IMG/VR virus record: IMGVR_UViG_3300025133_006719
Coordinates: 1-64,000 of that record
DNA length: 64,000 bases
Origin: a virus
Direction: 5' to 3' (one strand)
Position 1 is the first letter of the stretch. Each line of letters starts with the position of its first letter. The notes beneath the pieces were generated by a model. That model ran no database searches, was not told the DNA's origin, and saw only the letters and a program-made list of their open reading frames with translations. The translations under genes and the position numbers were made by a program. Positions 13,687 through 51,766 of the stretch are shown piece after piece.

Positions 13687-13715
13687 GACAGCTCTTGTTC
13701 ATATGTGCTAGCGCA

Positions 13716-13741
13716 GCCGTCCCTCGGGACGGTTTTTTTTT
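13716..13741 (+). terminator. Rho-independent terminator
   Basis: GCCGTCC-ctcg-GGACGGT followed by a T run. Confidence 0.85.
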
Positions 13742-13775: not shown

Positions 13776-14861
13776 ATGGATTTTGCATTAAATGTCCCCA
13801 TTAACGATGTAAGCTTTGGTCAGGTATCTGTTGCTCTCCTCAGGGAGATGCACGCTAGAGACCTTCAGCCTTGCGTTTTCCCTATAAGCAAAGTTTCCAT
13901 AAACACACAATCTAATCTTTCTGAGGACTTTAAGTCATGGCTAAACTCTTGTATCAGTAAATCTGTACGCTCTCATTCTAGATCTAATCCTATTTTTAAA
14001 CTTTGGCACCTGCAAGACAGCCTAGAATCCCACAGTAAAGAGCAGGTTTTACTTACGTTTTATGAGCTGGATCAACCCACGAAAAACGAAATTAACATAG
14101 CTAAAAACAACAGAACTTGTTTTACATCCGAATATTCTTGTGACATTTATAAAGATGTCGGGGTAGAAACAGGATACATACCACTAGGATTCGACGGTGA
14201 TAATTTTCATAGAACAGACAAGCAGTATTACGACGACGACAGGATTGTATTTAATCTAGTTGGCAAGTTTGAAAAGAGAAAGAACCACCAAAAAGTAATC
14301 GAAACTTGGCTTAAAAAATATGGAAACAACCCCAAATACTTCTTGAATTGCGCTGTATATAACCCGTTCTTTTCAGAAAGCCAGAACAAGTCTATATGGA
14401 ACGCCTTACTAAAAGGTAAAGATTACTTTAATATCAATTTCTTTCAGTATTTTGATAGAAACGATCAGTACAATGACTTCCTAAACTCGGGCCATATATT
14501 AATCGCTGCCTCTGGCGGCGAAGGATGGGGCCTCCCAGAGTTTCAATCTGTTGCTATGGGCAAGCATTCCCTAGTTTTAAAAGCCACAGGATACAAGGGG
14601 TGGGCTAATGATAAAAACTCAGTCTTAATGTACCCAACGTCAAAAGAAGAGGTTTACGATAATCAATTCTTTAGGAAAGGAGCGGACTACAATCAAGGTC
14701 ATGTATTTTGGTTTGACGAAGAAGATTTTATAGAAGGCTGTGAAGAGTCCATAGAAAGATATAATAAGAATCCTATAAATGAAGAGGGATTAAAACTTCA
14801 AGAACAATTTTCCTACTCTAAAACAGTAGATAAAATCATAGAAGAACTAGAAAAAGTGTAA
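13776..14861 (+). CDS. Glycosyltransferase, GT-B (GT4-like)
   Basis: VGKFEKRKN, GEGWGLPEFQS..MGK. Confidence 0.85.
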   Translation: MDFALNVPINDVSFGQVSVALLREMHARDLQPCVFPISKVSINTQSNLSEDFKSWLNSCISKSVRSHSRSNPIFKLWHLQDSLESHSKEQVLLTFYELDQPTKNEINIAKNNRTCFTSEYSCDIYKDVGVETGYIPLGFDGDNFHRTDKQYYDDDRIVFNLVGKFEKRKNHQKVIETWLKKYGNNPKYFLNCAVYNPFFSESQNKSIWNALLKGKDYFNINFFQYFDRNDQYNDFLNSGHILIAASGGEGWGLPEFQSVAMGKHSLVLKATGYKGWANDKNSVLMYPTSKEEVYDNQFFRKGADYNQGHVFWFDEEDFIEGCEESIERYNKNPINEEGLKLQEQFSYSKTVDKIIEELEKV

Positions 14862-18010: not shown

Positions 18011-18784
18011 GTGGCAAAAGATTTAAAAATCTTGTTTTGCTCCTTAATAAGAGACAAGGCGGAGTTCATAGGCGACTGGTATTCTAGAATACGTTCAATC
18101 CAGTCTCTAAGGCCAAGTTGGACTTTTAATATAAGCTTATACGAAAACGACAGCAAAGATGGATCCAAAGAGGATCTAGAAAACTTAGATTGGAGCTTCG
18201 CTAATTGGTTCAACCTTTCCTCAGAAAAGAACGATAAAGAATACTTTATTGGCCTAGAAAGGAAAAGGATAGAAAGGCTTTCTTCCTATAGAAATTTGTG
18301 CATCTACCAGTTTGGCGACTTAGATTCTATAGATAGGATTATTATGAACGATATAGATTGCTCCTATGATCCAAAACACGCGGTAGAGATCATAGAAAAA
18401 AGTCTGGAGTGGGATATATTTTCTTTTGCTAGTAGAGACTCTGGCACAGGAGATGAATTTTACGACAGGTGGGCAACCAGAAGAAGCCCAGTTGACACGT
18501 GGTGGGACGACAAACCCTACAACACAAAAGGAGATAATCAAACTTGGACAACAGGAAACGGCTTTGTCTCCTATAATCCAGAAGGCTTTAAAAGAGGTGC
18601 AACTTTTGGATACGTAAATAAGAGGCTAAAAACTCACGATAGTGAAAATGCGGTAGTGTGCGAAAACTTTAGAGCTTTTGGCTTTAACAAAATCGGTTTT
18701 GACGGCAGGTATAACACTATGCACGTGAGAGATAAGCACTGGCACAATAAAAAAGATGGAAGTACTACTAACAACATTCAATAG
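18011..18784 (+). CDS. GT-A glycosyltransferase, Cap59/CMT1 (GT69)-like
   Basis: YENDS.D, RIERLS.YRN, NDID, FYD.WA.R. Confidence 0.6.
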   Translation: MAKDLKILFCSLIRDKAEFIGDWYSRIRSIQSLRPSWTFNISLYENDSKDGSKEDLENLDWSFANWFNLSSEKNDKEYFIGLERKRIERLSSYRNLCIYQFGDLDSIDRIIMNDIDCSYDPKHAVEIIEKSLEWDIFSFASRDSGTGDEFYDRWATRRSPVDTWWDDKPYNTKGDNQTWTTGNGFVSYNPEGFKRGATFGYVNKRLKTHDSENAVVCENFRAFGFNKIGFDGRYNTMHVRDKHWHNKKDGSTTNNIQ

Positions 18785-19421
18785 ATCTAAGTATCTCAAA
18801 TCGTCTATAAAGTCTCTACTTAATTCTGACTTAGGAGACTCAACTATACATATTTATGACGATTGTAGCGAAGAGCCAAAAACATTAGGCATATTAGAAT
18901 CATTAAAAGATCACCCCCAAATTGAAATAGCAGTCAACGAAAGGAACTTGGGGTGCGATACTAATATAGCCTTAGCAGCCAGAGAAATAATCGAGAAAAC
19001 AGGATGTGAATACATCATTAGCACAGACAGCGATACTATCTACAATAAAGAGTGGTTAAACTTTTTTAAGAGCCAGCTTTCCAAGCCGGGGATTACTGAT
19101 TTTGCAGCTGCTATATCGTTGTTTAACGCTTCAGTTCATCCTGTTATTGGTACTTATGACGATGACCTTAACGTTAAAGAGAGTATGGGAGGGATGACGG
19201 TAGCCGTTAAGAGTTCGTATTTCTTTGATATGGATGAGACTACCGCCACAATAAATAAGCCGTGGTTCTGTTGGGACTGGGAGGTAGTTTATAAATCTCA
19301 AGAAAAAGGGGAACTCTTACTTTGCTCTAAGACCAGCATGGTTAGCCATATAGGTAAATATGGAGTTCATGCTAGAGGTGACGGCAATTGGGATCAGTGC
19401 GAGGATTTTATAGGAGAATAG
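18756..19421 (+). CDS. Glycosyltransferase family 2
   Basis: TFNR, YDDCS, N.RNLG, TDSD, HIG..G.H. Confidence 0.85.
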   Translation: MEVLLTTFNRSKYLKSSIKSLLNSDLGDSTIHIYDDCSEEPKTLGILESLKDHPQIEIAVNERNLGCDTNIALAAREIIEKTGCEYIISTDSDTIYNKEWLNFFKSQLSKPGITDFAAAISLFNASVHPVIGTYDDDLNVKESMGGMTVAVKSSYFFDMDETTATINKPWFCWDWEVVYKSQEKGELLLCSKTSMVSHIGKYGVHARGDGNWDQCEDFIGE

Positions 19422-19422
19422 A

Positions 19423-19600
19423 TATGGAAAATATAGAAAAAATAGATGAAGCTTTGGATCTTATAGTATCAATAGACACAGAGCGACTAACAGAAGAAGC
19501 AGCGGGGAATGTAATCTATGACGTTAACGATGCAGCAATATCTCTAGAGAGAATTAAAGACAGTCTTCTGGAAAAAACAAATTATGTTGAGTTTATTTAA
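19423..19600 (+). CDS. Small hypothetical protein (start approximate)
   Basis: MENIEKIDEALD... fills the gap in the operon. Confidence 0.5.
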
Positions 19601-20300
19601 GGATATTTACTGTATAAACTTAACCTCCAGAGAAGATAGGTGGCACCAAGTCCAAAAGTCTTTTTCTCAAATAGGCATTAAAGAGAAAGTACAAAGGTTT
19701 CCGGCTGTAAATCCAAGGGGATACGAGTTTGACCCTAAGTTCGACACCAAGGTAGGACCCTACCACATAGTACCTAACGCAGGATGCCTCGGCTCCCACA
19801 GGGCTATAATAAAAAAAGCTAAAGAAGAAGGGATGGAGCAAGTCCTCGTATTTGAAGACGACGTTTCTTTTCTTCATGAAGACATAACGGCGGTGAGACA
19901 CTCTGCAGAAGATCTGCCTAACACGTGGGGGCTATTTTACCTAGGAGCAACGGTTGAGAAAAAAATGAGCATGGTCTCTAATTTTTTATTCCGGACTAAT
20001 TGCGCTAAAGCTACTCACGCAGTAGTATATCACCACACAGTTTACGACGATATATTATCCAAAGTTCCAGAGGATATATCAGATTTGGTAGAGTTCACGG
20101 CGGGATGCGTAGCTGTCGACAACTTCTTAATACAAGAAATTCAGTCAAAGCACGCGACATATATTTGCAATCCCCTTTTCGCCGTCCAAGGTAAAAGCTT
20201 TAGCGATATAGTCCAGAGGAACATAGATTATAGTCACGATCAGATTAGGCTCTTCGATCAAAACAGGCCTGACGAGTGGTTCACGGAAAACTATAAATGA
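19584..20300 (+). CDS. Glycosyltransferase family 25
   Basis: YCINL..R.DRW, GCL.SH, LVFEDD, THA. Confidence 0.88.
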   Translation: MLSLFKDIYCINLTSREDRWHQVQKSFSQIGIKEKVQRFPAVNPRGYEFDPKFDTKVGPYHIVPNAGCLGSHRAIIKKAKEEGMEQVLVFEDDVSFLHEDITAVRHSAEDLPNTWGLFYLGATVEKKMSMVSNFLFRTNCAKATHAVVYHHTVYDDILSKVPEDISDLVEFTAGCVAVDNFLIQEIQSKHATYICNPLFAVQGKSFSDIVQRNIDYSHDQIRLFDQNRPDEWFTENYK

Positions 20301-21133
20301 TTACCTTTAAAAAGCTTGGGAGATTTGGTGGATTGGGGAATTCCTTATTCCAGTACAGCACCCTAATAGCTGTGGCGGAAAGGTATGGCTACGATATTAA
20401 GATACCTTACAAAAATGAAACTTTCTACGAAGAGTCGTATGAAGCTAATTGTTATTCTATATTTCAAGGGTTTAAAAAAGTTTACGACAACCTAGAGAAA
20501 GAAGACTTAGGGAACATAATGTATGAAGTAAGCGAAGCGGGAATGTCTTACGATCCTAATCTACTAAACGACATAAAAGACAACACAAATCTCCACGGAT
20601 ATTTCCAATGCGAAAAATACTTCAAAGACTACAGGGATAAAATCTTACAAACCTTGATCCCGACGGGTTATACGTATTCGTTTGCGATGAACTTTTTAAA
20701 CAGAAGTTCGGGAGAAGAGATAGACCCATTTGAATGTACATCTGTTCACGTAAGAAGGGGTGATTATTTAAAGAAGTCAGACTACTACAACATATTAGAT
20801 AAAGATTACTACCAAAAATCCATGGAAGAATCTAATACAAAGAAATACATATTCTTTTCAGATGACCCGGAGTGGTGCATGGAAAACTTTAAATCAGACG
20901 ACTACTACTTCAACAAAGAGGAGAACTCGCCATACGCCGACCTTCTTTGCATGTCCCTATGCAAGAACAACATCATAGCAAATAGCAGCTTCAGTTGGTG
21001 GGGAGCTTGGATGAATCAAAAAGAGGATAAGAAAGTCATTGCTCCTAAGGTTTGGTTTAATCCACAAATAAAAGACCGCAATAAAAACTACGAGGACAAG
21101 GATATAGTACCAGAAAGTTGGATAAAAATATGA
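20297..21133 (+). CDS. GT11 alpha-1,2-fucosyl/colitosyltransferase
   Basis: GGLGN.LFQY, GYFQ.EKYF, HVRRGDY, FSDD..W, NSSFSWWGAW. Confidence 0.92.
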   Translation: MITFKKLGRFGGLGNSLFQYSTLIAVAERYGYDIKIPYKNETFYEESYEANCYSIFQGFKKVYDNLEKEDLGNIMYEVSEAGMSYDPNLLNDIKDNTNLHGYFQCEKYFKDYRDKILQTLIPTGYTYSFAMNFLNRSSGEEIDPFECTSVHVRRGDYLKKSDYYNILDKDYYQKSMEESNTKKYIFFSDDPEWCMENFKSDDYYFNKEENSPYADLLCMSLCKNNIIANSSFSWWGAWMNQKEDKKVIAPKVWFNPQIKDRNKNYEDKDIVPESWIKI

Positions 21134-22026
21134 GCACAGTAATATTTGGAGCTAGAGGTTTCGTAGGCTCAAGCCTAGGACCCGAACTTGACCTAGCCTT
21201 TAAACCCAATAAATCGGTTTGCGACCTGACGAATCTCGATTCAGTTTTAACCTATTTAGACGGAACCAAGCCCGAAGCTATAGTAAATATGGCGGCTAGA
21301 GTTGGAGGCTTTCAATACAACAAAATAAACAACGTAGAGCTATTGAGAAACAACTCTTTAATCGCTTTAAATTTAGCAACGGCGATAAAGAAGCTAAGAT
21401 TAAGTTGTTATTACGTATATGTAAGTAGCGCTTGCGTCTACAAAGACGGCAATAGCCAAGAGGATTCCGTTTTTTTAGATAATCCGAACAATAATAACTT
21501 CGGGTACGGTCACTCTAAAAGGTTGGGCCACAAGGTTATAGATGCCTTAAACATAGACTGCCCAGATCTAATTAAGTCATGCATACTAATTCCAACCAAT
21601 ATGTATGGCCCGCATGATGATTTTGATCCTTTTGTATCTCATGTTATTCCAAATTTAATTAGGCAAATGGTATCAAAAGAAGATACTATAAAAGTATTAG
21701 GTAACCCAAATAACGGAAGAGACTTCATGTATAGCGGGGACTTATGCAACGCCATCTCAGAATGCTTAAGAAAAAAAATCGAAGGAACGTACAACGTTTC
21801 GACCTTCTTAACCGTCACAATTAAAACTCTAGTAGAGACGCTAGTAGAGATAACCGGCTACGAAGGGGTGGTAGAGATGGAAGAACCAGACGAATCTAAA
21901 GAGGCGGAGGTTAGAATATTAAATAATACAAAAATAGTAGAAGCGCTAAATCTATCAGGCGACGCTTTCACAGACTTAAAAGCAGGACTTAAACAAACCG
22001 TAGAATGGTACAAGAGTGGAAATTAA
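21130..22026 (+). CDS. GDP-L-fucose/GDP-L-colitose synthase (epimerase-reductase, Fcl/ColC)
   Basis: GARGFVG, AARVGG...N, SSACVY, YxxxK, PTNMYGP.D.F...SHVIP. Confidence 0.88.
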   Translation: MSTVIFGARGFVGSSLGPELDLAFKPNKSVCDLTNLDSVLTYLDGTKPEAIVNMAARVGGFQYNKINNVELLRNNSLIALNLATAIKKLRLSCYYVYVSSACVYKDGNSQEDSVFLDNPNNNNFGYGHSKRLGHKVIDALNIDCPDLIKSCILIPTNMYGPHDDFDPFVSHVIPNLIRQMVSKEDTIKVLGNPNNGRDFMYSGDLCNAISECLRKKIEGTYNVSTFLTVTIKTLVETLVEITGYEGVVEMEEPDESKEAEVRILNNTKIVEALNLSGDAFTDLKAGLKQTVEWYKSGN

Positions 22027-23249
22027 ACGTAGACAACTTTACCCTATTAGACCGCCTCAAGATATGTAAGTTCTTTTTATCAAAAAAGAACAGGTGGACT
22101 CAGGGAAAGTATGTAAGAGAATACGAAAAGGCGTGGGCCGAATACACAGGCTGCAAATACGCCGTTATGTTTTCTAGCGGTTCTACCGCTAACTCTTCCA
22201 TTGCCCAGTATATAAAACACAAAACTGAAGATGGCACCCATAAGTCAATCGGCTCCACAGTGTTGGTACCTTCCGTAACTTGGCAAACGTCTGTTACCCC
22301 TTGGATAAAAGCAGGCTTTAAAGTAAAGTTTATAGATATAACTTATGACGACTTTGGAATGAGCGCCAAAGAGCTGGGGCTATATTTAGAAGAGAATAAA
22401 AATAAGGTTGCCTACGTTTGGCCTACTTCTTTAATTGGGTTTAACCCAGATGTAAAAGGGATTACAGAAGAATGCAGAAAACATAAAGTAGAATATGGAC
22501 TAGATAATTGTGAGAACGCTTTTGGAGAGGTCTTGTCAACAGCAGAAGACGGAGACCTAACGCTCAAAACCCATATTTGTAAGGTAGCAACAAGCTCCAT
22601 CTCTACTTACTTCGGGCACCATACCACCTCAGTAGAGGGAGGCTTTATCCTAACTGATGACGAGAGAGAGTATAAATTCCATTTGATGAACAGGTCGCAT
22701 GGCATGACCAGAAGCCTGACAGAATATGGCATAGACTGTAAACTCTATCAGAACAATTTGGTTGATCCTAGTTTTGATTTTTTCTGCATGGGAAGTAACT
22801 ACAGGGCCACAGACATAGAAGCCTTTATAGGCTTACTAGACTTTAAGAGGATTGAAGACTATATAGAGACTAGGAGAGAATTGTATTCCTACTTCGCGGG
22901 GAAGATTGACCACGAGAAGTTTATACTGCCTAAGTTTGACATACATAACCTAAACGTCCCATTCTGCTTGCCTATAATTTTCAAAAAGAAAACGGCAGAC
23001 TGGAGAGCTAAAGATCTAGTGCTTGACACAAAAGCCTTTTGCGCTAAAAATAAAATAGAGCACAGGCAGATAATAGGAGGAAACATGCTTCGCCAGAGAC
23101 CATACCTCTCACCATTCCCAAAAGGGGAACAGTGGAAGGAATACCCAGTAGCCGAACACCTCCACAATTACGGGCTTTACGTAGGGCTAAACCACAAAGT
23201 CAAAAAAAGCATGATCTCAAACTTAACAGAGTATTTAAACAACTTATGA
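22005..23249 (+). CDS. colD: GDP-4-keto-6-deoxy-D-mannose 3-dehydratase (ColD-type PLP enzyme)
   Basis: SSGSTAN, DNCE, STYFGHH.TSVEGG with His in place of the aminotransferase Lys; RSHG. Confidence 0.75.
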   Translation: MVQEWKLNVDNFTLLDRLKICKFFLSKKNRWTQGKYVREYEKAWAEYTGCKYAVMFSSGSTANSSIAQYIKHKTEDGTHKSIGSTVLVPSVTWQTSVTPWIKAGFKVKFIDITYDDFGMSAKELGLYLEENKNKVAYVWPTSLIGFNPDVKGITEECRKHKVEYGLDNCENAFGEVLSTAEDGDLTLKTHICKVATSSISTYFGHHTTSVEGGFILTDDEREYKFHLMNRSHGMTRSLTEYGIDCKLYQNNLVDPSFDFFCMGSNYRATDIEAFIGLLDFKRIEDYIETRRELYSYFAGKIDHEKFILPKFDIHNLNVPFCLPIIFKKKTADWRAKDLVLDTKAFCAKNKIEHRQIIGGNMLRQRPYLSPFPKGEQWKEYPVAEHLHNYGLYVGLNHKVKKSMISNLTEYLNNL

Positions 23250-24286
23250 AAAACGTAATAATAACGGGAGTGACAGGACAGGACGGCTCCAATATGGCTG
23301 ACCACCTCATAAACAACCATGAGGACATCCATGTCTACGGAATGTCTAGGAGGGTTTCGATACCGAATAACAACAACATCAAGCACTTACTGTCCCACCC
23401 CAGATTTACCCTGTTTCATGGCGACCTTACTGATTCAACGAGCATAAACAGCGCCGTAAAGAAGTATTCCCCAGATTATTTTTTAAATTTTGCTGCTAAC
23501 TCTTATGTTGGATGTAGCTGGACAAGCCCCATCCATGTCTGGGAAACCAATACGACTGGTTTACTTAGATGTTTAGAAGCCATTAGGTGCTATGCCCCCA
23601 AATGTCGGTTCTATAGCGCTGGTAGCTCTGAAGAGATGGGGGACGTGGATTACTCACCACAAGACCTTAAACACCCCATTAAACCCAGAAGCCCCTATGG
23701 AGCCTCTAAGGCAGCTTGTAGGCACCTAACTAAGGTTTACAGAGAGTCTTACAACCTTTTCGCTATCCATAGCATTTTATTCAACCACGAAGGATTGAGG
23801 AGAGGTGAGGAATTTGTCACACGTAAAATTACAAAAGGCGTAGCCAAAATTAAGAAAAGCATAAAAAACAATGAAGACATTATTCCCATTCGATTAGGCA
23901 ACGTTAATTCAAGGAGAGACTGGTCTGATTCTGAGGATTTTATGAGGGGTGTTTGGATGATGATGCAGCAAGACGAACCCAAAGAGCATATCCTAGCTAG
24001 CGGAGAGACCCATTCCATTAAAGACTTTGTCGCAACTGCCTTTGCTGCCGCCGGTATCCCCGGTTTATGGAGTGGGGAAGGAATGGACGAAAAGTTTAGG
24101 CTTTTTCAAGAGAACACGGTCTTAGCGGAAATAGATAATGAATTTTATAGGCCAGCGGAAGTCGAGCTTTTGTGGGGAGACTCAACATCAGCTAGAAAAG
24201 AACTAGGATGGGAACCGCAGATTTCGTTTGACAAACTAGTAGAACGTATGGTACACTGTGACCTTGCGTTGAATGACGGACTTTGA
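23246..24286 (+). CDS. gmd: GDP-mannose 4,6-dehydratase
   Basis: ITGVTGQDGS, AGSSE, PRSPYGASK, LFNHE..RRG..FVTRKIT, RDW, RPAEV..L.GD. Confidence 0.95.
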   Translation: MKNVIITGVTGQDGSNMADHLINNHEDIHVYGMSRRVSIPNNNNIKHLLSHPRFTLFHGDLTDSTSINSAVKKYSPDYFLNFAANSYVGCSWTSPIHVWETNTTGLLRCLEAIRCYAPKCRFYSAGSSEEMGDVDYSPQDLKHPIKPRSPYGASKAACRHLTKVYRESYNLFAIHSILFNHEGLRRGEEFVTRKITKGVAKIKKSIKNNEDIIPIRLGNVNSRRDWSDSEDFMRGVWMMMQQDEPKEHILASGETHSIKDFVATAFAAAGIPGLWSGEGMDEKFRLFQENTVLAEIDNEFYRPAEVELLWGDSTSARKELGWEPQISFDKLVERMVHCDLALNDGL

Positions 24287-24704
24287 GCTAATAGGAGAAT
24301 CTATCGGAGACACCGGCGAAAAGAAGGCTAAAGCTAAGGCTAAAGCTAAAAAGCCAGCGCCAAAGGATAAGAATCATGCTTTCTATTCCTTCATGGTTTC
24401 TACGTTTTGCTCCGATCCAAAGAAGATAACGTTCATCTTTCAGTACAAGAGGGCCAAAGAGCTTTTCGCTATTATACCTGACAAAAAGTTTTGGAAGTGG
24501 CTGAACGCGGAGGGACACAAGATATACTCCCTAAAAGAGTGGCTGAAACCAGAGAAGACAGAGTGGCTCAAATTTCAAAACAAGAAAAGGAACCTAAACC
24601 TGTCAGACAAGAAGACATACAGCTTAGAAAATAAACCAATCGGAAAAAATAAAAAAGGATTAAAATACCACAAGAACTTAATTGATTTCACAGACGATGA
24701 GTAA
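24273..24704 (+). CDS. Hypothetical protein
   Basis: ORF preceded by TTGACA...TACACT near 24228-24256. Confidence 0.6.
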   Translation: MTDFELIGESIGDTGEKKAKAKAKAKKPAPKDKNHAFYSFMVSTFCSDPKKITFIFQYKRAKELFAIIPDKKFWKWLNAEGHKIYSLKEWLKPEKTEWLKFQNKKRNLNLSDKKTYSLENKPIGKNKKGLKYHKNLIDFTDDE

Positions 24705-25761
24705 AGAAAAAATAGCACAACTACTTAATGATAAAAGGTTTAAGGGCCATCACTACAACACCAGCGCCCCCATTGATTGGTGTAGCAGTACCGGGAGCAT
24801 CGCACTAGACATCTTTATGGACGGCGGGCTTACCCCGGGTATATTCAGGGCGTCAGGCGAACCGGAGAGCGGAAAGACCAGCTTCGCTTTAAACTGTGCA
24901 AAAATATTTCAAGAGACAGTAAAGAATTCATTTGTCTTTTATGTTAACGCCGAAGGCAGACTTAATAAGATTCTTCTTGAAAGGAGCGGGATATCCCTCA
25001 AGGAAGACAAGTGGTTTTGTTTAGATAGCAATATGCTTGAGCCAAGCTTAGGCATGATAAAGGAGTTAGTACTAGACAACAAAAATAATTATCAATATTT
25101 ATTTATCTTAGATTCTACAGATGCTCTTTGTAGGGTGGAGGATTTAAACAAAGACTTCTCTCAAGGCCAAAAAGTCGCAGGTTCAGCGGTTACTTTTTCG
25201 TTTGCGGGTAAATCTCTTAGCTTACCTATTACAAGATACGGTCACGCTATGATAGTTTTATCTCAAACCAGAACGAAGATGAACACTACCGGCTATGGCG
25301 CAACTGGCGGATCAACTGTTTCCGGAGGCAAAGCTTTGGGGTTTTATAGTTCAGTTATGGCAGAAATACAGCCCCTATGGACAGACCTTTATATTTGGGA
25401 AAACCCATCAGCAGCTTCAATTAAAGACAAAGGGAAACGTCTCGGCCACTATTGCGTTATGAAGTTCTCGAAGACTCGTAACGAAAAAACCGGGCAGACG
25501 GTGGCTATTCCAGTTAAGTACTCCCAACAAGGAGGGGCCATATGGAGGGAAGTCGAAATTTATATGCTTTTACTACAGTTTGAGTTCCTTAAAAAGTCGG
25601 GGGCATGGTATGTTTTTTCAGACGATTTAGTGGAAGAGGTAGAGTCTCAAAAGATTGAGATTAAACAAAAGTTCCAAGGAGAAAGAAATCTTTGGGCCTA
25701 TTTGGCGGGGAATGATAAGCTTTTAGATTTCCTGTCAAACAAGTTTAAAGAACTCATTTGA
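24697..25761 (+). CDS. recA: RecA/UvsX-like recombinase
   Basis: STGS.ALD...GG, GEPESGKT, SGGKAL.FYSS, K.GAWY. Confidence 0.92.
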   Translation: MSKEKIAQLLNDKRFKGHHYNTSAPIDWCSSTGSIALDIFMDGGLTPGIFRASGEPESGKTSFALNCAKIFQETVKNSFVFYVNAEGRLNKILLERSGISLKEDKWFCLDSNMLEPSLGMIKELVLDNKNNYQYLFILDSTDALCRVEDLNKDFSQGQKVAGSAVTFSFAGKSLSLPITRYGHAMIVLSQTRTKMNTTGYGATGGSTVSGGKALGFYSSVMAEIQPLWTDLYIWENPSAASIKDKGKRLGHYCVMKFSKTRNEKTGQTVAIPVKYSQQGGAIWREVEIYMLLLQFEFLKKSGAWYVFSDDLVEEVESQKIEIKQKFQGERNLWAYLAGNDKLLDFLSNKFKELI

Positions 25762-28464: not shown

Positions 28465-29329
28465 GCTAGGATACTCCCAAATCCTAGATAACGGTAGAGA
28501 GTACAGGATGAGGCCTCTTTACAGAGAGTCTAGCAATAATAGCTCATTAAGCGTTAAGAAAGATACTGGATACTTCAATGATTGGGGCGTTGGCGAAAAA
28601 GGTTCATTCCAAAGGTTGGTTCAAATTCATTTGAAGGTTACCACGATTGAAGCGTCAAACTGGATAAGGAACAAGGGGTTAAACCAGACCCGCACCAACG
28701 AGGACGACAAACCTAAAGTAAAGGAGGCTAGAAAATTCAACAAGGAATCATTAAAACATATAACCCCAGACCATACCTATTGGGTAAACAGGGGGGTAGC
28801 GGAAGAAACTTTATCTTTGTTCCAAGGGGGCATAGTTGACGCAGGCCAACTCAAAAACAGGTACGTGTTCCCAATTTTCAACAAGCAAAAAGAAGTGATA
28901 GGCTACACGGGTAGAGATATAACCGATAGCAGTAAAATAAAATGGAAACATATGGGAGACAAAAGCCAATGGAAGTACCCACTACAAGTAAATTATAAGG
29001 ATATAAAATCCTGCAATAAGGTAATCCTACTGGAAAGTATCGGAGACATGCTTTCACTTTGGTCCGCTGGAATAAAAAACAGTATGGTTATATTTGGGGT
29101 AGACATAAGTAGCGAAGTTTTTAATCAGCTATTAAGCTTTGACCCAGATAAAATTACAATATCTCTAAATAATGACGAGAGGCAGACCGGAAGCATAGCG
29201 GCACACAAACTAAAAAAGAAACTATTAAAATTTTTTGACCCAAGTCAAGTCGAAGTCATGCTACCTAGACACCATAACGATTTTGGGGATATGTCTACGG
29301 AGGAAGTGAAGGATTTTTTTTATGAGTAA
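28439..29329 (+). CDS. DNA primase (Toprim)
   Basis: R.VFPI...GY.GR, ESIGD.LS, NND..G, NDFG. Confidence 0.85.
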   Translation: MTIKEVLSELGYSQILDNGREYRMRPLYRESSNNSSLSVKKDTGYFNDWGVGEKGSFQRLVQIHLKVTTIEASNWIRNKGLNQTRTNEDDKPKVKEARKFNKESLKHITPDHTYWVNRGVAEETLSLFQGGIVDAGQLKNRYVFPIFNKQKEVIGYTGRDITDSSKIKWKHMGDKSQWKYPLQVNYKDIKSCNKVILLESIGDMLSLWSAGIKNSMVIFGVDISSEVFNQLLSFDPDKITISLNNDERQTGSIAAHKLKKKLLKFFDPSQVEVMLPRHHNDFGDMSTEEVKDFFYE

Positions 29330-29924
29330 CTATGATAGAATATTCGGAATGGAGGAGCAAGAGAAAGACAAAGATCTTTTGAGCTATTACTGGTACGAAG
29401 GCATTCTTACCCCAGCTAAGTGCGAGGAGATGATAAAGATTGGGAAAAGTTACCCCAAACAAACCGCTACAACCTTCGCAAACTCAACTGGAGAGAGTGA
29501 AAGCGAAGTAAGGAATAGCGAAGTAAGATGGGTCCCACTAAACAAAGATACCCAATTCATCTTTGACCTAATAAGGGAATGCTGCGAAGAAGCCAACAAG
29601 AATCTATTCAAAGTTGATATAACCGGCTTTACAGAGGATCTACAATTTACAGAATACGAAGGGGCGGGTAAGCATTACGACTGGCATCCAGACATAGGGC
29701 CGGGAAAGAATAAGAGGAAGCTAACCGTTGTTATTCAATTAAGCGATCCAAAGGATTATACTGGGGGAGATTTAATAGTACAGACAGGCGGCGAAGTTAC
29801 CATGAAGAAAGGCATAGGTAATGTAGTTGTATTCCCTTCATTTTTACTCCACAAGGTTTGCAAAGTTGAGTCCGGCAACAGGTATACTATGATTAGCTGG
29901 GTTAGCGGAAATCCGTGGAGATGA
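29322..29924 (+). CDS. 2OG-Fe(II) oxygenase (prolyl-4-hydroxylase-like)
   Basis: LQFTEY, YDWHPD, RKLT..QLS...Y.GGDL, FPSFL.HKV..V.SG.R. Confidence 0.9.
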   Translation: MSNYDRIFGMEEQEKDKDLLSYYWYEGILTPAKCEEMIKIGKSYPKQTATTFANSTGESESEVRNSEVRWVPLNKDTQFIFDLIRECCEEANKNLFKVDITGFTEDLQFTEYEGAGKHYDWHPDIGPGKNKRKLTVVIQLSDPKDYTGGDLIVQTGGEVTMKKGIGNVVVFPSFLLHKVCKVESGNRYTMISWVSGNPWR

Positions 29925-30937: not shown

Positions 30938-31708
30938 ATGGACATCATTCCATTATTCAAGAGTCACTATTCTTTAGGCAGGAGTATACTGACTTTGGCG
31001 TCTGAGTCTGAGCCGAATGGCCCAGATTCGATCCCTCAAATAGCCCAAGAGAACTCCTTGAAGGAGGTCTATCTGGTTGATGATTCTATGGGCGGGTTTC
31101 TTGAAGCTTACTCAAGCTTAGCCAAATTCAAGATTAAGCTTATATTTGGGGTCAGGATTACCGTCTGCCAAGATCTTCATAAAAAGAACGAGGCGTCCAT
31201 TCAGACTTCCTGCAAGTATATTATCTTTTGCAAAAACAAGAACGGGTACAAAAGGTTAATCAAAATCTATAGCCAAGCTGCCATCGAAGGGTTCTATTAT
31301 GAGTCAAGAACTGACTTTGAATCAATAAAGAATAACTGGAGCGACAAAGACCTTTTACTTGCAGTTCCTTTTTATGATTCCTTTATATTTCAGAATAATT
31401 TTAGCAGTCGCGGCTGCGTTCCAGATTTTAGCTTTTGTAAGCCCGTGCTCTTTGTAGAAAACAATAACCTACCATATGATCACATACTAAAAGACTTGGT
31501 TGAAGATTATGCTTCTGCATCTAAGTATGAAAAAGTAAACACTCAAAGCGTCTTTTATAAAAACAAAGAAGACTTTAAAGCCTACTTAACTTTTAGATGC
31601 ATTAACAACAGAAGCACATTAGAAAAACCGCAGCTAAACAACATGTCCTCGGACACTTTTTGCTTCGAGAACTGGACAAATCAAGGTCAGGAGGCAGTCA
31701 ATAAGTGA
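30938..31708 (+). CDS. Stand-alone PHP domain of DNA polymerase III alpha
   Basis: SHYSL..S, IKLIFG, KN..GYK.LIK..S.A...GFYY..R.D. Confidence 0.82.
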   Translation: MDIIPLFKSHYSLGRSILTLASESEPNGPDSIPQIAQENSLKEVYLVDDSMGGFLEAYSSLAKFKIKLIFGVRITVCQDLHKKNEASIQTSCKYIIFCKNKNGYKRLIKIYSQAAIEGFYYESRTDFESIKNNWSDKDLLLAVPFYDSFIFQNNFSSRGCVPDFSFCKPVLFVENNNLPYDHILKDLVEDYASASKYEKVNTQSVFYKNKEDFKAYLTFRCINNRSTLEKPQLNNMSSDTFCFENWTNQGQEAVNK

Positions 31709-33424: not shown

Positions 33425-33624
33425 TGCCATCTTTAGATTACTTAGAGGACTTAAAAGATAAACTAGAAAAAGATAACTTAGATTATTTTATGGTAGTTAT
33501 TTCTAGAGGAGAGAAGAAGAATAAAGCTAACGTTTGTTATAAGCTCTCTAAAAAGCATACAATCGATACGCTTAAAAAGGTTCTTCACAGATTAGACATA
33601 GAAGGAGCGATTGAAAATGACTGA
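33424..33624 (+). CDS. Hypothetical protein
   Basis: TAATG coupling. Confidence 0.6.
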   Translation: MPSLDYLEDLKDKLEKDNLDYFMVVISRGEKKNKANVCYKLSKKHTIDTLKKVLHRLDIEGAIEND

Positions 33625-36866: not shown

Positions 36867-38801
36867 GTGAAGAAGAAAAAGCTATTATTCCAAAGCGACT
36901 TTGCTTTAATGAAAACGGGCTTTGGCCGAAATGCCAGAGCTGTTTTGTCTTATTTGTATAAGACTGGTAAATATGAGATACTGCACTACTGCTGCGGTAT
37001 GAACAAAGATAACGTGATGCTTGACAAAACGCCTTGGAAAAGCGTTGGATGCATACCACCTGCTGGCGAGCTACGCGGGAAGAAAGCTAAAGACCCCTCA
37101 ATACAGAGGGATGTAAATTACGGTTCCCTTTTTATTGATGAGGTCGTTAAGGACTTTAAACCTGACGTATATATAGCAGTACAAGATATTTGGGGCGTAG
37201 ATTTCGCAGTTCCTAAACAATGGTTTAGTAAAATCACTTCATGCATATGGACTACGCTTGATTCCTTACCTATTTTGCCATCAGCCGTTAAGACAGCAAA
37301 AAAGGTCAACAACTATTGGATATGGAGCAACTTCGCAACTCAAGAGCTTAGGAGACTTGGGCATGAACATGTTAAAACAGTAAGAGGGGCAGTAGAGTGT
37401 ACGTACTTTAAGAGATTAAAGAATAGGAATGAGCTTAGAAATAAATTTAACCTTAAAGATAATTTTGTCATTGGCTTTGTATTTAGGAATCAATTAAGAA
37501 AATCTGTACCCAACCTCCTAGAAGGGTTTTCCCTCTTTAAGTTGGCTCACCCAAATGCGAAAGCGAAACTGTTGCTACATACAAGCTTCGAAGAAGGCTG
37601 GGGCATTCCTAAGTTAGCAAAAGAATACGATATACCAATCGAGGATATACTAACAACGTATGTCTGCGCCAAATGTAAACACTATGAGGTACAACCATAT
37701 ACAAAAAACGTATTAGACTGTAAAAAGTGTGAGTCGGAGAAAACTGTAAAAACTGTAAATATAGGTACAGCAGCAACCGAGGCTCAATTAAATGAAGTCT
37801 ATAACTTAATGGATGTATATTGCCATCCATTCACCAGCGGTGGTCAAGAGATCCCAATCCAAGAAGCGAAACTAACCGAACTGGTTACGCTAGTTACCAA
37901 CTATAGCTGTGGCGTGGATTCTTGCGTAGAAGAAGCCGCATCTTTACCTTTAGAGTGGTCCGAATACAGAGAGCAAGGCACAGAGTTTAGAAAAGCTTCC
38001 ACCAAGCCAGAGTCAATCCTAGAACAGCTTCGTAAAGTCTATAATATGACTGATGAAGAAAGAACTAAAATGGGCAAGCAGGCCAGAAAATGGGTGTTAT
38101 TGAATTTCGATACTCCTGTTATAGGAAAACAGATATGTGAGTTCGTGGACGATGCCCCCTTTGTAGACGAATCTGTTTTTGGGGAGGGCGAGGAGGAAGA
38201 GATAAACCCCTATATTCCCATAGACAACAGTATCAAGGAGGATAAGCAGTGGCTAACAGAAGCTTATCACAAAATTTTAAGCATGACCCACGTTGACGAA
38301 GACGACGATGGTCACAAATATTGGATGGAGCTTTTAGAGTCAAAGAAAAACAGCAGACAAGATGTTGAGAGTTACTTTAGGCAGACCGCTATAGACAACA
38401 AAAATAAAAAAATACTTAGAATCAGCGATGACAAATTTTCATCTCATCTAGACGAAGACGACGAGGGTAAGCGCATTATAATGGTAATCCCTAAGGACGC
38501 TGGGGATGTATACTTGGCTACCAGCTTGCTTCCAAGCATTAACAGGCTTTACCCCGACTACAATCTCTATTTTGCTTGTGAGGATAAGTTCAAGGATATT
38601 ATCTTAGGGAATCCTCATGTTCATAAGTGGGTTCCTTTTTGTCAGTCTATGGAGCAGGGGGTTTGGCTGGAAGGAAATGGCAATCATAAAGGATGGTTCG
38701 AGGTCGCTTATGTTCCTTTCTTAACAATTCAAGAGAACCTATCTAGCTGGCTTCATAACGATAAAAAAGATAAATTAGATTTAGAGCTATGCACATATTA
38801 G
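36867..38801 (+). CDS. GT4-like glycosyltransferase with Zn-finger insert and C-terminal GT9-like half domain
   Basis: TGFG, RNQ.RK, CAKC..CKKC, YN.MD, GGQEIP..EA, then AGDV..ATS...I..GNPHV. Confidence 0.8.
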   Translation: MKKKKLLFQSDFALMKTGFGRNARAVLSYLYKTGKYEILHYCCGMNKDNVMLDKTPWKSVGCIPPAGELRGKKAKDPSIQRDVNYGSLFIDEVVKDFKPDVYIAVQDIWGVDFAVPKQWFSKITSCIWTTLDSLPILPSAVKTAKKVNNYWIWSNFATQELRRLGHEHVKTVRGAVECTYFKRLKNRNELRNKFNLKDNFVIGFVFRNQLRKSVPNLLEGFSLFKLAHPNAKAKLLLHTSFEEGWGIPKLAKEYDIPIEDILTTYVCAKCKHYEVQPYTKNVLDCKKCESEKTVKTVNIGTAATEAQLNEVYNLMDVYCHPFTSGGQEIPIQEAKLTELVTLVTNYSCGVDSCVEEAASLPLEWSEYREQGTEFRKASTKPESILEQLRKVYNMTDEERTKMGKQARKWVLLNFDTPVIGKQICEFVDDAPFVDESVFGEGEEEEINPYIPIDNSIKEDKQWLTEAYHKILSMTHVDEDDDGHKYWMELLESKKNSRQDVESYFRQTAIDNKNKKILRISDDKFSSHLDEDDEGKRIIMVIPKDAGDVYLATSLLPSINRLYPDYNLYFACEDKFKDIILGNPHVHKWVPFCQSMEQGVWLEGNGNHKGWFEVAYVPFLTIQENLSSWLHNDKKDKLDLELCTY

Positions 38802-39985
38802 AAGCCTATGCATCAAATTGTTGCCTTAAAATAGATAAACCTTTTATCTACGAAAAATACTACCCACTTCCGGCTGACAAATACATCACTCTGCACCATC
38901 CGAATAAAACAGACTCAAGGAAATATGACCATTGGGACTCTGTCGTTAGGCTGTTGAAGCCGGTTCTAGATAAAGAGGGTATTAAGATCGTACAGGTGGG
39001 GACTGGGTCAGAAGTGATAGTAAAGAATTGCCATAACTTGCTTGGTCGCACTTCCGTTAATCAGTTGGCCTACGTTATAAGGCGTTCAATGTTGCACCTT
39101 GGAGTTGACAGTCTTCCGATTCACTTAGCCTCTGGATATGGGAAAAAAATAGTAGCACTCTATTCTAATAAATATGCCTGTCACTCTGGCCCCTACTGGT
39201 CAAAAGAAGAGGATGTGATATTGTTAGAGTCTGACAAAGACGGAGACAAACCAACTTACGCACATAATGAAGAACCGAAGACCATAAATACAATAGCTCC
39301 CGAGGATATCACTAAGTCTGTTTGTAAGCTTTTAGGTCTAGATTTCGACTACGAATACGAAACGTTATACACTGGTAAATTCTTCCATATTGGTTTAGTC
39401 GAGTCAGTCCCAGATGAGGTTGTTAAAATATCAAACATGGATGGCCAGACAAGTTACATAAGAGCAGATATAAAAAACACAAACACCACACCCGAAAAAA
39501 TAGACGCACAACTTTCAATCGATGGCAAGTATTCTTTAATGATTGATAAACCTATCGACATAAACATACTAACCAAAAACAAAAAAAGGATTGATACAAT
39601 AATCTACATAATAGACGAGAGATCAAGGGCGTCCTTCTATGACGAAGTTATTTCCGAAGGCTTAAAATGCACACTTGCAACATTCGCCAGCGATGAAGAG
39701 TTCGAGAAAATTAAATTTAAGTTTTTAGACTACCCTAAGGTTACAAGAGTTAAGATAGATAGGGCAGATGAAGTTAAACAGCTAGAAGGAGAAAGTATTA
39801 AAAAGCTTTTTTATCAAACCAATAAGTATACTATTCACAAGTCCAAGTTCTACGCGAGCCAAGCGGCTTTAGAAAACGGAGAGCCAGCATCAAGGATGGA
39901 TCCTTCTGACGTTTATCAAATACCAGATAACCCCAACTTCTTCAAAGACTTGGATCATATTAGGATACTCAAAAAAACTCCTTGA
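38789..39985 (+). CDS. GT9 (heptosyltransferase-like) domain protein
   Basis: K.YDHW, VQVG, L.G.TS..QLA..I.....LGVDS.P.HLA...GK. Confidence 0.75.
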   Translation: MHILEAYASNCCLKIDKPFIYEKYYPLPADKYITLHHPNKTDSRKYDHWDSVVRLLKPVLDKEGIKIVQVGTGSEVIVKNCHNLLGRTSVNQLAYVIRRSMLHLGVDSLPIHLASGYGKKIVALYSNKYACHSGPYWSKEEDVILLESDKDGDKPTYAHNEEPKTINTIAPEDITKSVCKLLGLDFDYEYETLYTGKFFHIGLVESVPDEVVKISNMDGQTSYIRADIKNTNTTPEKIDAQLSIDGKYSLMIDKPIDINILTKNKKRIDTIIYIIDERSRASFYDEVISEGLKCTLATFASDEEFEKIKFKFLDYPKVTRVKIDRADEVKQLEGESIKKLFYQTNKYTIHKSKFYASQAALENGEPASRMDPSDVYQIPDNPNFFKDLDHIRILKKTP

Positions 39986-46585: not shown

Positions 46586-47185
46586 ATGAATATAACGAAG
46601 TCTATCAGGCTTAACAACAGTCAGCTAAAAGATTTAGCCCAAGTAGGTAAAAGCAGGCATGAAGCTAAAGATATATCATTTAGAAACGCAAGCAAACACG
46701 GAAGCTTCAAAAAATATAAGACTAACAAAGTAGTCAACTTGTACAACTTAGAGGTAACTGAAAGACACATCCCCCATATAGCTGGCGTTATTGGAGAGTA
46801 TGCTTACGGAAAGTTTATAGGCGAAGATATAGATAGGAAGATATACTCCGTAAGAGATGATGGCGTAGATTTCAAGAACGGAGCAGAAGTTAAGACTTCA
46901 ACATTTTACGGCGGCTCATGGGGAGAGACAGAGCTTAAAATACCCAAAAGGGAGTATCTAGAAAGGAGCCCAAAATTATACATTTTAGCGAGACTAAGCT
47001 CGGAGATTTTAGTAAAGTCTCCCCCTTTCTTAATGGTGGAAATATTAGGTCAAATATCAAGTGGCAAATTTGAGTCTATTAAAGAGGTGAAGCAATACAT
47101 AGGAGGTGGCCCCGTCAATTACGTAGTTGGAGCGAGTCGCCTTGACCCGGTTTCCCCAATAGAAGAACATTGGTATTTTAAGTGA
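46586..47185 (+). CDS. Hypothetical protein (possible nuclease fold)
   Basis: G..GE.A, D.G.DF, EVKT. Confidence 0.55.
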   Translation: MNITKSIRLNNSQLKDLAQVGKSRHEAKDISFRNASKHGSFKKYKTNKVVNLYNLEVTERHIPHIAGVIGEYAYGKFIGEDIDRKIYSVRDDGVDFKNGAEVKTSTFYGGSWGETELKIPKREYLERSPKLYILARLSSEILVKSPPFLMVEILGQISSGKFESIKEVKQYIGGGPVNYVVGASRLDPVSPIEEHWYFK

Positions 47186-47661
47186 TGAAATTAGCAATAG
47201 TTAGTGGTGGATTTGATCCCGTCCATGTCGGGCATTTAGAATGTTTCGAAAAGGCTAAAAGCATGGCCGATCATTTGTTTGTGATAGTCAATGATGATAA
47301 GTTCCTAGAACGTAAAAAAGGTAAGGCGTTCATGAATTGGCGGGAGAGATTAACAATAACACAAGCTTTTAAGCCGGTTACAATGGCTCTTCTATCTATC
47401 GACGATGACGATACCGTTTGTAAGACCTTGGAGTGGATCAACAGCGTTTTCAAAGATAGATACGACAAGATAGCGTTCTGCAACGGAGGGGATAGAACTA
47501 TCGACGCCGAAAAGCCAGAGCATAAACTCTGTCTAGATTTAGGGATTAAGCCTATCTACGGCTTAGGAGATAAAATACAAAGCAGCAGTTGGTTAACCTC
47601 GGGGAGCGAACAAGCTCCAGCCCAAGAACGCCAGTCTAATGCGGGGAGCCTATTCTTTTAA
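47182..47661 (+). CDS. Cytidylyl/adenylyltransferase (HldE/TagD-like)
   Basis: SGGFDPVHVGH, VN.D..L.RKKG, GGDR, SSS. Confidence 0.88.
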   Translation: MMKLAIVSGGFDPVHVGHLECFEKAKSMADHLFVIVNDDKFLERKKGKAFMNWRERLTITQAFKPVTMALLSIDDDDTVCKTLEWINSVFKDRYDKIAFCNGGDRTIDAEKPEHKLCLDLGIKPIYGLGDKIQSSSWLTSGSEQAPAQERQSNAGSLFF

Positions 47662-47951: not shown

Positions 47952-48028
47952 GCCCCGATAGCTCAATTGGACAGAGCATCTGCCTTCTAAGCAGAGGGTT
48001 TCTGGTTCGAGTCCAGATCGGGGTACCA
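47952..48028 (+). tRNA. tRNA-Arg (anticodon UCU)
   Basis: GCCCCGA acceptor stem, D-arm, TCTGC-CT-TCT-AA-GCAGA, GGTTCGAGTCC, encoded CCA. Confidence 0.96.
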
Positions 48029-51718: not shown

Positions 51719-51766
51719 TCATGTATAACTACGATATACTCCCAGAAGAAACCGAAGAAGAATACT

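Follow-up and report, generated by a model that had tools for sequence, protein, structure and literature searches.

In the first 64 kb (hereafter the window) of the 79,299-nucleotide (nt) viral contig IMGVR_UViG_3300025133_006719 from IMG/VR, which has a CheckV completeness of 52%, we identified a cassette of four overlapping genes at positions 20297-24286 that probably channels GDP-D-mannose of the host towards a GDP-3,6-dideoxy-L-hexose for use as a glycosyl donor, GDP-L-colitose being the likeliest product. The source is an uncultured, marine phage of lytic type, and the genes encode, in order, a glycosyltransferase (GT) of family GT11, a reductase of the Fcl/ColC family, a pyridoxal phosphate (PLP) enzyme resembling the 3-dehydratase ColD, and a GDP-mannose 4,6-dehydratase (Gmd). 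This run had been proposed in an initial annotation made from the letters of the sequence, and it is borne out by the open reading frames (ORFs; 20297-21133, 21118/21130-22026, 22005-23249 and 23132/23246-24286, all on the + strand), by their overlaps, and by Pfam matches whose strength in four successive long ORFs is far beyond chance. The accompanying proposal, that Gmd, ColD and ColC-type activities would lead to GDP-colitose, is supported by the ColD-type PLP enzyme, the mannose-type Gmd and the likeness of the GT11 to its bacterial counterpart. 3,6-Dideoxyhexoses are immunodominant sugars of bacterial O-antigens, from which the chemistry itself is already known, while the functions of the phage enzymes are predicted; what is added here is a recombinase-anchored synteny, a measure of island variability, and the undecided ColC membership of the reductase.

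In the proposed route, GDP-mannose would be oxidised and dehydrated by Gmd to GDP-4-keto-6-deoxy-D-mannose, which the ColD-type enzyme would hold as a ketimine of pyridoxamine phosphate (PMP) while His205 takes the C4' proton and the C3 hydroxyl leaves. Hydrolysis would then release GDP-4-keto-3,6-dideoxy-D-mannose and ammonia, with glutamate regenerating PMP, a step that would need no Fe-S reductase partner. The Fcl-family enzyme would epimerise C5 through a Cys/His pair and reduce C4 through a Ser-Tyr-Lys triad and NAD(P)H to give the L-xylo sugar, which the GT11 would pass to an acceptor made by the neighbouring GT69-like, GT2 and GT25 enzymes.

The same four enzyme families make up the colitose pathway of Escherichia coli O55:H7 (Gmd; ColD/WbdK, PDB 2gms/2r0t/3b8x/3gr9; ColC/WbdJ; GT11), with which the phage cassette shares the histidine in place of the Schiff-base lysine, the lack of an Fe-S motif, the residues separating ColD from the CDP-sugar dehydratase E1, the Fcl-type catalytic residues, and the GT11 motifs. 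However, identities between the two systems are low (ColD ~30%, ColC 27%, Gmd 39%, GT11 30-34%), and the phage dehydratase and reductase fall into a virus-only clade and a separate deep lineage, respectively. Gene order is also reversed in the phage (GT11, reductase, dehydratase, Gmd), and the cassette, which lacks manB/manC, wzx and wzy, sits by a phage recombinase gene.

The predicted ColD-type dehydratase and its Gmd partner

The initial annotation had recognised ColD in the PLP enzyme from a DNCE motif and a histidine where sugar aminotransferases carry the Schiff-base lysine. Both of the motifs quoted, LDNCENAFG (containing DNCE) and SSISTYFGHHTTSVEGG / STYFGHHTTSVEGG, are found in the translation of 22005-23249, and the identification agrees with structure-database matches, alignment columns, phylogeny and fold. 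His205 of the PLP enzyme aligns with His188 of ColD, and the best PDB sequence match is E. coli O55 ColD (2gms, E 2.4e-33), with E1 (2.7e-14) and perosamine synthase (1.4e-11) scoring lower; identity to ColD of the fetched E. coli O55:H7 reference genes is ~30%. An AlphaFold model of the enzyme (predicted local distance difference test score, pLDDT, 90.9) returned only ColD structures among its top ten Foldseek matches in the PDB, with template modelling (TM) scores of 0.78-0.86.

Phylogenetic reconstruction with 83 sequences, a quick search yielding long branches, resolved three groups with a support of 99: the aminotransferases of the Lys type, the E1 enzymes, and a superclade around ColD. 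One half of this superclade is a canonical clade with representatives from E. coli, Yersinia, Vibrio and Campylobacter. The other comprises a few environmental bacteria and cyanophage S-CAM7, together with a clade of viral sequences only (stem 1.05, support 100); the window enzyme belongs to the latter and so lies outside the canonical E. coli/Yersinia/Campylobacter clade. The environmental-bacterial and cyanophage enzymes are sister to the virus-only clade, and most of them have Gmd and/or Fcl-like neighbours.

Residue conservation follows the same divisions. The column of ColD His188 is occupied by histidine in 73/73 dehydratases (30/30 viral, 9/9 sister, 21/21 canonical ColD, 13/13 E1) and by lysine in 9/9 aminotransferases. 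Residues that distinguish ColD from E1 and aminotransferases (W88, E162, H215, R219, F240, F242, R250, E329 and R331 in E. coli numbering) are all kept in the window enzyme and conserved in 29-30 of the 30 viral sequences; from the ColD structures of the Holden laboratory, the W88-R331 set reportedly acts in GDP-sugar binding. Of the five conserved cysteine columns of E1, the window enzyme has cysteine only at DNCE, which is common to all dehydratases, and the CxC insert of E1 is wholly missing. A histidine for lysine is a reviewed criterion for 3-dehydratases, among which an Fe-S motif splits ColD from E1/SpnQ (PMC8987622). Together, these features and the modelled fold point to a ColD-type 3-dehydratase belonging not to canonical ColD but, on its phylogenetic position, to a virus-only sister lineage, and glutamate-dependent C3 deoxygenation of GDP-4-keto-6-deoxymannose is its predicted reaction.

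E1 itself (CDP-6-deoxy-L-threo-D-glycero-4-hexulose 3-dehydrase; RfbH/DdhC/AscC; PDB 3bcx) has the same fold and the same histidine for lysine, but differs in its [2Fe-2S] cysteine motif, which the window protein lacks, its reductase partner, its CDP-sugar substrates and its separate clade. In our view it is extremely improbable that the PLP enzyme acts as an E1 of the CDP type (RfbH/DdhC) or as an ordinary sugar aminotransferase, or that the glycan is placed on hypermodified phage DNA. Homologues are indeed named 'CDP-6-deoxy-D-xylo-4-hexulose-3-dehydrase' by the Joint Genome Institute (JGI) and GenBank, and the NCBIfam RfbH and PseC models match weakly at ~104 bits, a level far under their cut-offs (RfbH 103.5 vs 423). 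Clustering with Lys-type aminotransferases or with CDP-specific RfbH/E1, which the initial annotation had named as contrary to its proposal, is not seen, and the enzyme instead lies in the ColD superclade (Shimodaira-Hasegawa-like approximate likelihood ratio test, SH-aLRT, 99). Position in the tree and the His205 column, where all Lys-type relatives have lysine, speak against the aminotransferase; E1 is disfavoured by its separate clade and low RfbH score, by the absence of its Fe-S cysteines and specific residues, and by the adjoining dehydratase, which is Gmd and not a CDP-glucose dehydratase. As for DNA glycosylation, the cassette does lie among DNA-metabolism genes, but ThyX and dUTPase are encoded, and the ORFs that were scanned include no ThyA-like hydroxymethylase.

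The Gmd protein matches Pfam PF16363 over its full length (positions 1-332 of 332, E 2.9e-103) and carries the motifs GVTGQDGS, SSE, YxxxK, NHE..RRGE.FVTRKIT and FRPAEVE. Whether it is of the mannose type matters because Campylobacter jejuni ColD homologues dehydrate a heptose analogue (PMC10440746). Identity of 39-42% to true Gmds, against 27-29% to the GDP-heptose 4,6-dehydratases of Campylobacter and Helicobacter, along with Gmd-specific motifs lacking in those heptose dehydratases encoded beside ColD homologues, indicates that the phage protein is mannose-type. In the GDP-3,6-dideoxyheptose pathway of C. jejuni HS:5/HS:11 (Ghosh, Xiang and Raushel 2023, PMC10440746), a ColD-family C3-dehydratase likewise follows a Gmd-like enzyme and recycles PMP with glutamate; there, however, the substrate is a heptose, and a cupin epimerase and a reductase are separate, where the window has a Gmd-type enzyme and a single bifunctional Fcl-type one. 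A pathway acting on GDP-D-glycero-D-manno-heptose to give a 3,6-dideoxyheptose, as in C. jejuni capsules, would draw on this precedent and on the PfkB kinase (rfaE domain I-like), cytidylyltransferase-like and GT9-like genes of the window. We consider such a pathway highly improbable. Besides the Gmd identities and motifs, the heptose-like genes are of the ADP-heptose (HldE) rather than the GDP-heptose type, and a scan of the contig for an HddC/ManC-type nucleotidyltransferase (NTP_transferase) and GmhA found none.

Surveying cellular and reference ColD-type loci, we found an Fcl-like gene in ~75/82 and Gmd in ~68/82, and the trio can therefore be taken as a pathway signature; in the window, the ColD-type gene overlaps both the Gmd and the Fcl-family reductase genes.

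Viral distribution and synteny of the dehydratase/Gmd pair

The stretch recurs in marine metagenomes (20 runs, 18 studies), among which no RNA dataset is listed. An independent IMG/VR contig (L011) has an identical gene run with proteins 96-98% identical, and G+C content is even along the contig (0.38-0.42), being the same in the cassette as in the remainder; the cassette is thus not an assembly artefact. Cassette DNA had no match among 50,697 phage records (blastn), and tblastn searches for cultured relatives, using DnaE-like polymerase, UvsX-like protein and RIIA as queries, recovered nothing closer than ~26-38% local identity. At the protein level, database matches to the PLP enzyme at E <= 1e-10 amounted to 599, of which the best 120 are 44-50% identical, bar a few at 54-98%. 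Relatives in the virus-only dehydratase clade occur on at least 279 IMG/VR contigs, and the best cellular match, from a search of 185,579 prokaryote species, each represented by a single genome, has 33% identity.

Of 80 related viral loci examined for synteny, 60 have Gmd after the ColD-like gene, and 51 keep the full order of ColD-like gene, Gmd, small ORF and UvsX-like gene. The ColD-like gene is the most conserved of the module, and the reductase is often absent, with 52/80 loci having no Fcl-family reductase within 8 kb of the pair; GT11 is found in 12/80. Upstream lies a mosaic island of GT4, GT2, GT10, GT17, GT69-like and GT9-like genes, C- and FkbM-type methyltransferases, and an oxidoreductase/acetyltransferase/aminotransferase trio, and in eight of the loci a CAP59/GT69-like family immediately precedes the ColD-like gene. 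A relaxed Pfam search for a reductase among ten unannotated island proteins found none, returning only faint GT9, GT2 and GT4 hints and one FkbM methyltransferase; these neighbours of the pair resemble additional divergent GTs. For 26 comparable loci, gene-content similarity (Jaccard) was 0.10 upstream, against 0.47 for the downstream replication module. The conserved order of the pair and UvsX-like gene and the variable upstream content mark the ColD-like/Gmd pair as the anchor, next to the recombinase gene, of a hypervariable glycan island.

A tentative extension of this observation is that, in a large and uncultured lineage of marine phages, the pair forms the invariant core of a locus for glycan diversification. 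GDP-4-keto-3,6-dideoxymannose would then be a branch point, from which swappable upstream cassettes of reductases, methyltransferases and GTs would build a phage-specific dideoxy-sugar glycan on the virion or the infected cell, as a viral counterpart of O-antigen serotypes. The virus-only dehydratases might also differ from bacterial ColD in the range of substrates they accept or products they release. Loci lacking a recognisable reductase (52/80) would suit metabolic sabotage, in which Gmd and the ColD-like enzyme drain host GDP-mannose or make an inhibitory keto-sugar, stopping surface polysaccharide production with no glycan being built. This is very unlikely, since in the window the pair is translationally coupled with a reductase and a GT11, and all of the related islands are dense in GTs and methyltransferases, arguing for construction.

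Two further features of these loci were observed. A conserved protein of ~121 amino acids (aa) (cluster 8, e.g. L069:9148-9510), with no family match, is often encoded between or beside the pair. In addition to the pair, six loci (L037:2015-3373, L045:1996-3342, L063:1998-3335, L090:370-1689, L040:7335-8648 and L088:5044-6384) carry a second His-type, E1-like 3-dehydratase of ~440 aa, in which the E1 cysteine columns are present and whose gene adjoins one for a distant CDP-glucose-dehydratase-like short-chain dehydrogenase/reductase (SDR); those phages may therefore encode two 3,6-dideoxyhexose routes.

Cultured cyanophages S-CAM7 and ACG-2014f (Mazuvirus) have the same four families, annotated as Gmd, 'GDP-L-fucose synthetase' and 'putative CDP-4-keto-6-deoxy-D-glucose-3-dehydrase' with an adjoining GT11. 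Their dehydratase is His-type, lies in the ColD superclade and is ~32% identical to that of the window; it differs in falling in the sister group with Bacteroidota and other cellular sequences and not in the virus-only clade, and the cassette has another gene order and neighbourhood, near a tail-fibre gene. In S-CAM7 (KU686212), an adenylylsulfate kinase (L001:8717-9286) is encoded two genes past the colitose-type cassette, followed by GT25 and tail-fibre genes, which hints at a sulfated glycan and a link to the tail-fibre region. Fucose genes are also known from other viruses. Chloroviruses carry GMD/GMER genes, and the fucose sets of chloroviruses and cyanophages are without a 3-dehydratase, so that their end product is a 6-deoxy and not a 3,6-dideoxy sugar. 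Like the cassette, the GDP-fucose 'LPS/cell-wall' genes of T4-like cyanophages (e.g. S-SCSM1, PMC9602691) comprise Gmd, an Fcl-type enzyme and fucosyltransferase-family GTs, and were read as serving surface-glycan remodelling. Literature on colitose with phage, cyanophage, virome and giant virus, and on S-CAM7/ACG-2014f, yielded no paper describing colitose synthesis encoded by a virus, and we found none on a virus making any 3,6-dideoxyhexose.

The initial annotation had expected routine annotation to miss the pathway, and this is partly so. In the RefSeq/PGAP record of E. coli O55:H7 CB9615 (NC_013941.1; L005:7702-9788), even ColD is a 'DegT/DnrJ/EryC1/StrS family aminotransferase' and ColC a 'GDP-L-fucose synthase family protein', and an NCBIfam scan of the PLP enzyme matched no ColD-specific model, only RfbH, PseC and similar ones, all under cut-off. 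The pathway is overlooked by automatic annotation because of such generic names and the lack of a specific model; on the other hand, JGI and the GenBank record of S-CAM7 already give a (CDP-type) 3-dehydrase. Should the proposed function be true, many aquatic phages, including those of the at least 279 contigs with the virus-only clade and the cultured cyanophages with the sister form, would carry a rare-sugar route, and labels such as 'aminotransferase', 'fucose synthase' and 'CDP-sugar dehydrase' would mask phage effects on the cell surface or on their own particles. Such sugars bear on phage adsorption, superinfection exclusion, grazing and glycan-based host range, and the system is tractable, with small soluble enzymes and with cultured cyanophages as an experimental entry.

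The reductase and the identity of the sugar

The reductase keeps the Ser107/Tyr136/Lys140 triad and the Cys109/His179 epimerisation pair (E. coli Fcl numbering), and its best PDB matches are GDP-L-fucose synthases (E 9e-24). It is the sole extended SDR on the contig besides Gmd, has about a dozen close homologues, and is 29% identical to E. coli Fcl (E 7e-18) and 27% to E. coli ColC (E 5.9e-18). Phylogenetically it belongs to a clade of its own (9 sequences, support 100, stem 1.37); Fcl was represented by the E. coli enzyme and a small number of named homologues, the five bacterial genomes searched having ColC only. In an approximately unbiased (AU) test, sisterhood with ColC could not be rejected (p = 0.312). 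These features suggest a member of the Fcl/ColC family from a deep phage-restricted lineage. Its role as a GDP-L-colitose synthase, inferred from context because the protein is distant from both ColC and Fcl and because cellular ColD loci have a nearby Fcl-like gene, is the weakest link of the predicted pathway. Of the pathway components initially named, the ColD-type and Gmd assignments therefore stand, while the reductase is not demonstrably ColC-type, given its separate clade and the AU result.

As the reductase derives from a separate deep lineage, a product other than colitose is conceivable. This might be another GDP-3,6-dideoxyhexose, either the L-ribo C4 epimer or a D-sugar formed without C5 epimerisation, and swaps of the C4-reductase after the ColD-type step in C. 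jejuni lead to L-ribo, L-xylo, D-arabino or D-lyxo products (PMC10440746). The long-stemmed reductase clade and its low score on the Fcl model, given below, would accommodate this. We nonetheless consider it unlikely, since the Fcl and ColC branches both give one C4 configuration, Cys109/His179 are kept, sisterhood with ColC is unrejected (p = 0.31), and the adjoining GT11 family takes GDP-beta-L-fucose-type donors.

It is less likely still that the cassette chiefly makes GDP-L-fucose for a GT11 fucosyltransferase, with the PLP enzyme inactive or unrelated. This is the usual reading of such phage genes: the combination of Gmd and Fcl is taken as a fucose route in cyanophage papers (PMC9602691), most characterised GT11 enzymes are fucosyltransferases, and the reductase is as near to E. 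coli Fcl as to ColC. Yet the gene for the PLP enzyme is undisrupted, overlaps the genes on either side, retains every ColD-specific residue tested, and is the module gene most conserved across the viral loci, from which the reductase is often missing; moreover, fucose and colitose synthesis can coexist.

Several points weigh against the GDP-colitose route preferred here. The virus-only dehydratase clade is assigned by sequence at 28-33% identity to any cellular homologue, and has glycine at the position of ColD Ser187. Gmd scores 322.9 bits on TIGR01472, under the equivalog cut-off of 415. For the reductase, the NCBIfam Fcl model gives 118 bits, compared to 301-316 for true ColC, and in the free tree its clade is distinct from canonical ColC (support 100), from the Fcl-type clade and from another viral clade of ColD-adjacent reductases; the configuration at C4 and the epimerisation of C5 are therefore assumptions. 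An Fcl-like gene is near the pair in only 28/80 viral loci, so the pair does not always feed a colitose-type product. The GT11 could take host GDP-fucose instead, the sequence itself points to no acceptor, and the 79-kb contig (52% complete) has no lipid-carrier priming enzyme, flippase, polymerase, ligase or polytopic membrane protein.

Glycosyltransferases, candidate acceptors and genomic setting

Coupling of the GT11 to the pathway genes, as initially proposed, is supported by family motifs and by similarity to the GT11 of E. coli O55. The protein scores 95.2 bits on PF01531 against a gathering cut-off of 23.9 and carries GGLGN, HVRRGDY and ANSSFSWWGAW, the latter two aligning with the E. 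coli O55 enzyme, to which it is 30-34% identical by BLASTP (E 4e-30) and which we take to be the colitosyltransferase WbgN; no solved GT11 structure matched. The GT11 is the predicted user of a GDP-L-sugar, with GDP-colitose as its putative donor. An alpha-1,2 linkage, the acceptor, and the contributions of the GT2, GT25 and GT69-like neighbours are inferred.

As the target, we rank first an LPS/LOS-type (lipopolysaccharide/lipooligosaccharide) glycan of the infected cell's envelope, with somewhat less than even confidence. GT25, the GT9-like gene, the HldE-like genes, the established role of such sugars and the position of the cassette among early/middle genes point in this direction. GDP-mannose and any export machinery must come from the host. 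The proteins of the virion rank second as the target. Virus-encoded glycosylation of virions has precedents in mycobacteriophages, chloroviruses and mimiviruses, and the same pathway could serve a glycan on phage capsid, tail or fibre proteins through soluble cytoplasmic GTs. In favour of the virion, all of the GTs seen are soluble GT-A/GT-B types, the contig is without a priming enzyme, flippase, polymerase and ligase, the homologous S-CAM7 cassette is a few kb from a tail-fibre gene, and variation of the upstream island among related phages (Jaccard 0.10 vs 0.47) is expected of an exposed structure under diversifying selection. This variability is equally explicable by differing host acceptors, however, and the GT25, the GT9/heptosyltransferase-like gene and the split HldE-like pair indicate LPS/LOS core chemistry; the cassette also sits in a terminator-free run with recombinase and replication genes, away from structural genes. 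A virion glycan is thus possible but doubtful.

The cassette and the features around it are listed below.

Features of the window encoding the predicted dideoxysugar cassette, its neighbours and other glycosyltransferases
Feature	Position	Strand	Supporting match
GT4-type glycosyltransferase, first gene past terminator-like site	13776..14861	+	PHROG 2170, E 1.3e-16
GT69-like (CAP59-type) glycosyltransferase, opens contiguous GT run	18011..18784	+	Pfam CAP59_mtransfer, E 1.2e-10
GT2 glycosyltransferase	18756..19421	+	Pfam Glycos_transf_2, E 6.4e-14; NCBIfam only weakly WcaA/PglI-type GT2
GT25 glycosyltransferase (LPS/LOS galactosyltransferase family)	19584..20300	+	Pfam Glyco_transf_25, E 4.5e-11
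GT11 glycosyltransferase (alpha-1,2-fucosyl/colitosyltransferase family)	20297..21133	+	Pfam Glyco_transf_11, E 5.5e-27
Predicted Fcl/ColC-family (GMER-type) epimerase/reductase	21130..22026	+	Pfam Epimerase/GDP_Man_Dehyd, extended SDR, E 2.2e-38
Predicted ColD-type PLP/PMP-dependent GDP-4-keto-6-deoxy-D-mannose 3-dehydratase	22005..23249	+	Pfam DegT_DnrJ_EryC1, E 6.9e-32
Predicted Gmd, GDP-mannose 4,6-dehydratase, 346 aa	23246..24286	+	Pfam GDP_Man_Dehyd, E 2.9e-103
Small ORF and RecA/UvsX-like recombinase (synteny anchor, outside the chemistry)	24273..25761	+	Pfam RecA, E 2.8e-12; PHROG 97 UvsX-like, E 2.7e-30
GT4-like (644 aa) and GT9/heptosyltransferase-like (398 aa) genes	36867..39985	+	Pfam Glycos_transf_1, E 6.7e-06; Glyco_transf_9, E 3e-09; NCBIfam heptosyltransferase III, E 1.1e-08

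The GT25 and GT11 genes overlap by 4 nt, the GT11 and reductase genes join at an ATGA with the likelier reductase ATG at 21130, and the reductase and PLP-enzyme genes overlap by 22 nt. The PLP-enzyme and Gmd genes again join at an ATGA, the true Gmd start being ATG 23246 and not GTG 23132. From these junctions, the four cassette genes appear to be translationally coupled. A terminator-like site lies at 13715-13734, with no other convincing one until ~25 kb and no further good promoter-like site until 26485; the GT run, cassette and recombinase gene may therefore share one long transcription unit.

Four FkbM-family methyltransferase genes (three in tandem at 51035-53220, and one at 55793-56428) are found among genes for 2-oxoglutarate-Fe(II) (2OG-Fe(II)) oxygenases (29322-29924 and 55173-55763), and possibly encode sugar O-methyltransferases for the same glycan. 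A possible ADP-heptose module comprises a cytidylyltransferase-like gene at 47182-47661 (weakly matching rfaE domain II), a PfkB kinase gene at 48038-48901 (rfaE domain I, 93 bits, under cut-off) and the GT9/heptosyltransferase-like gene at 38789-39985, and may point to LPS inner-core chemistry or protein heptosylation. Between the cytidylyltransferase-like and PfkB genes lies a tRNA-Arg(TCT) gene (47952-48028).

Other genes of the window encode RIIA, a UvsX/RecA-like recombinase, a DnaB-like helicase, primase, a DnaE-like polymerase, ribonucleotide reductase, ThyX and dUTPase. A very large ORF of at least 1,760 aa (372-5654), which is open towards the 5' end of the window, has no Pfam or PHROGs match. 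In the region of 33611-36190 and 30938-31708, the replicative polymerase is DnaE-like (PHROG 405, E 6e-157) and a small separate PHP-domain protein is encoded upstream; the presence of a DnaE-like polymerase alongside T4-like RIIA and UvsX-like genes is an unusual combination.

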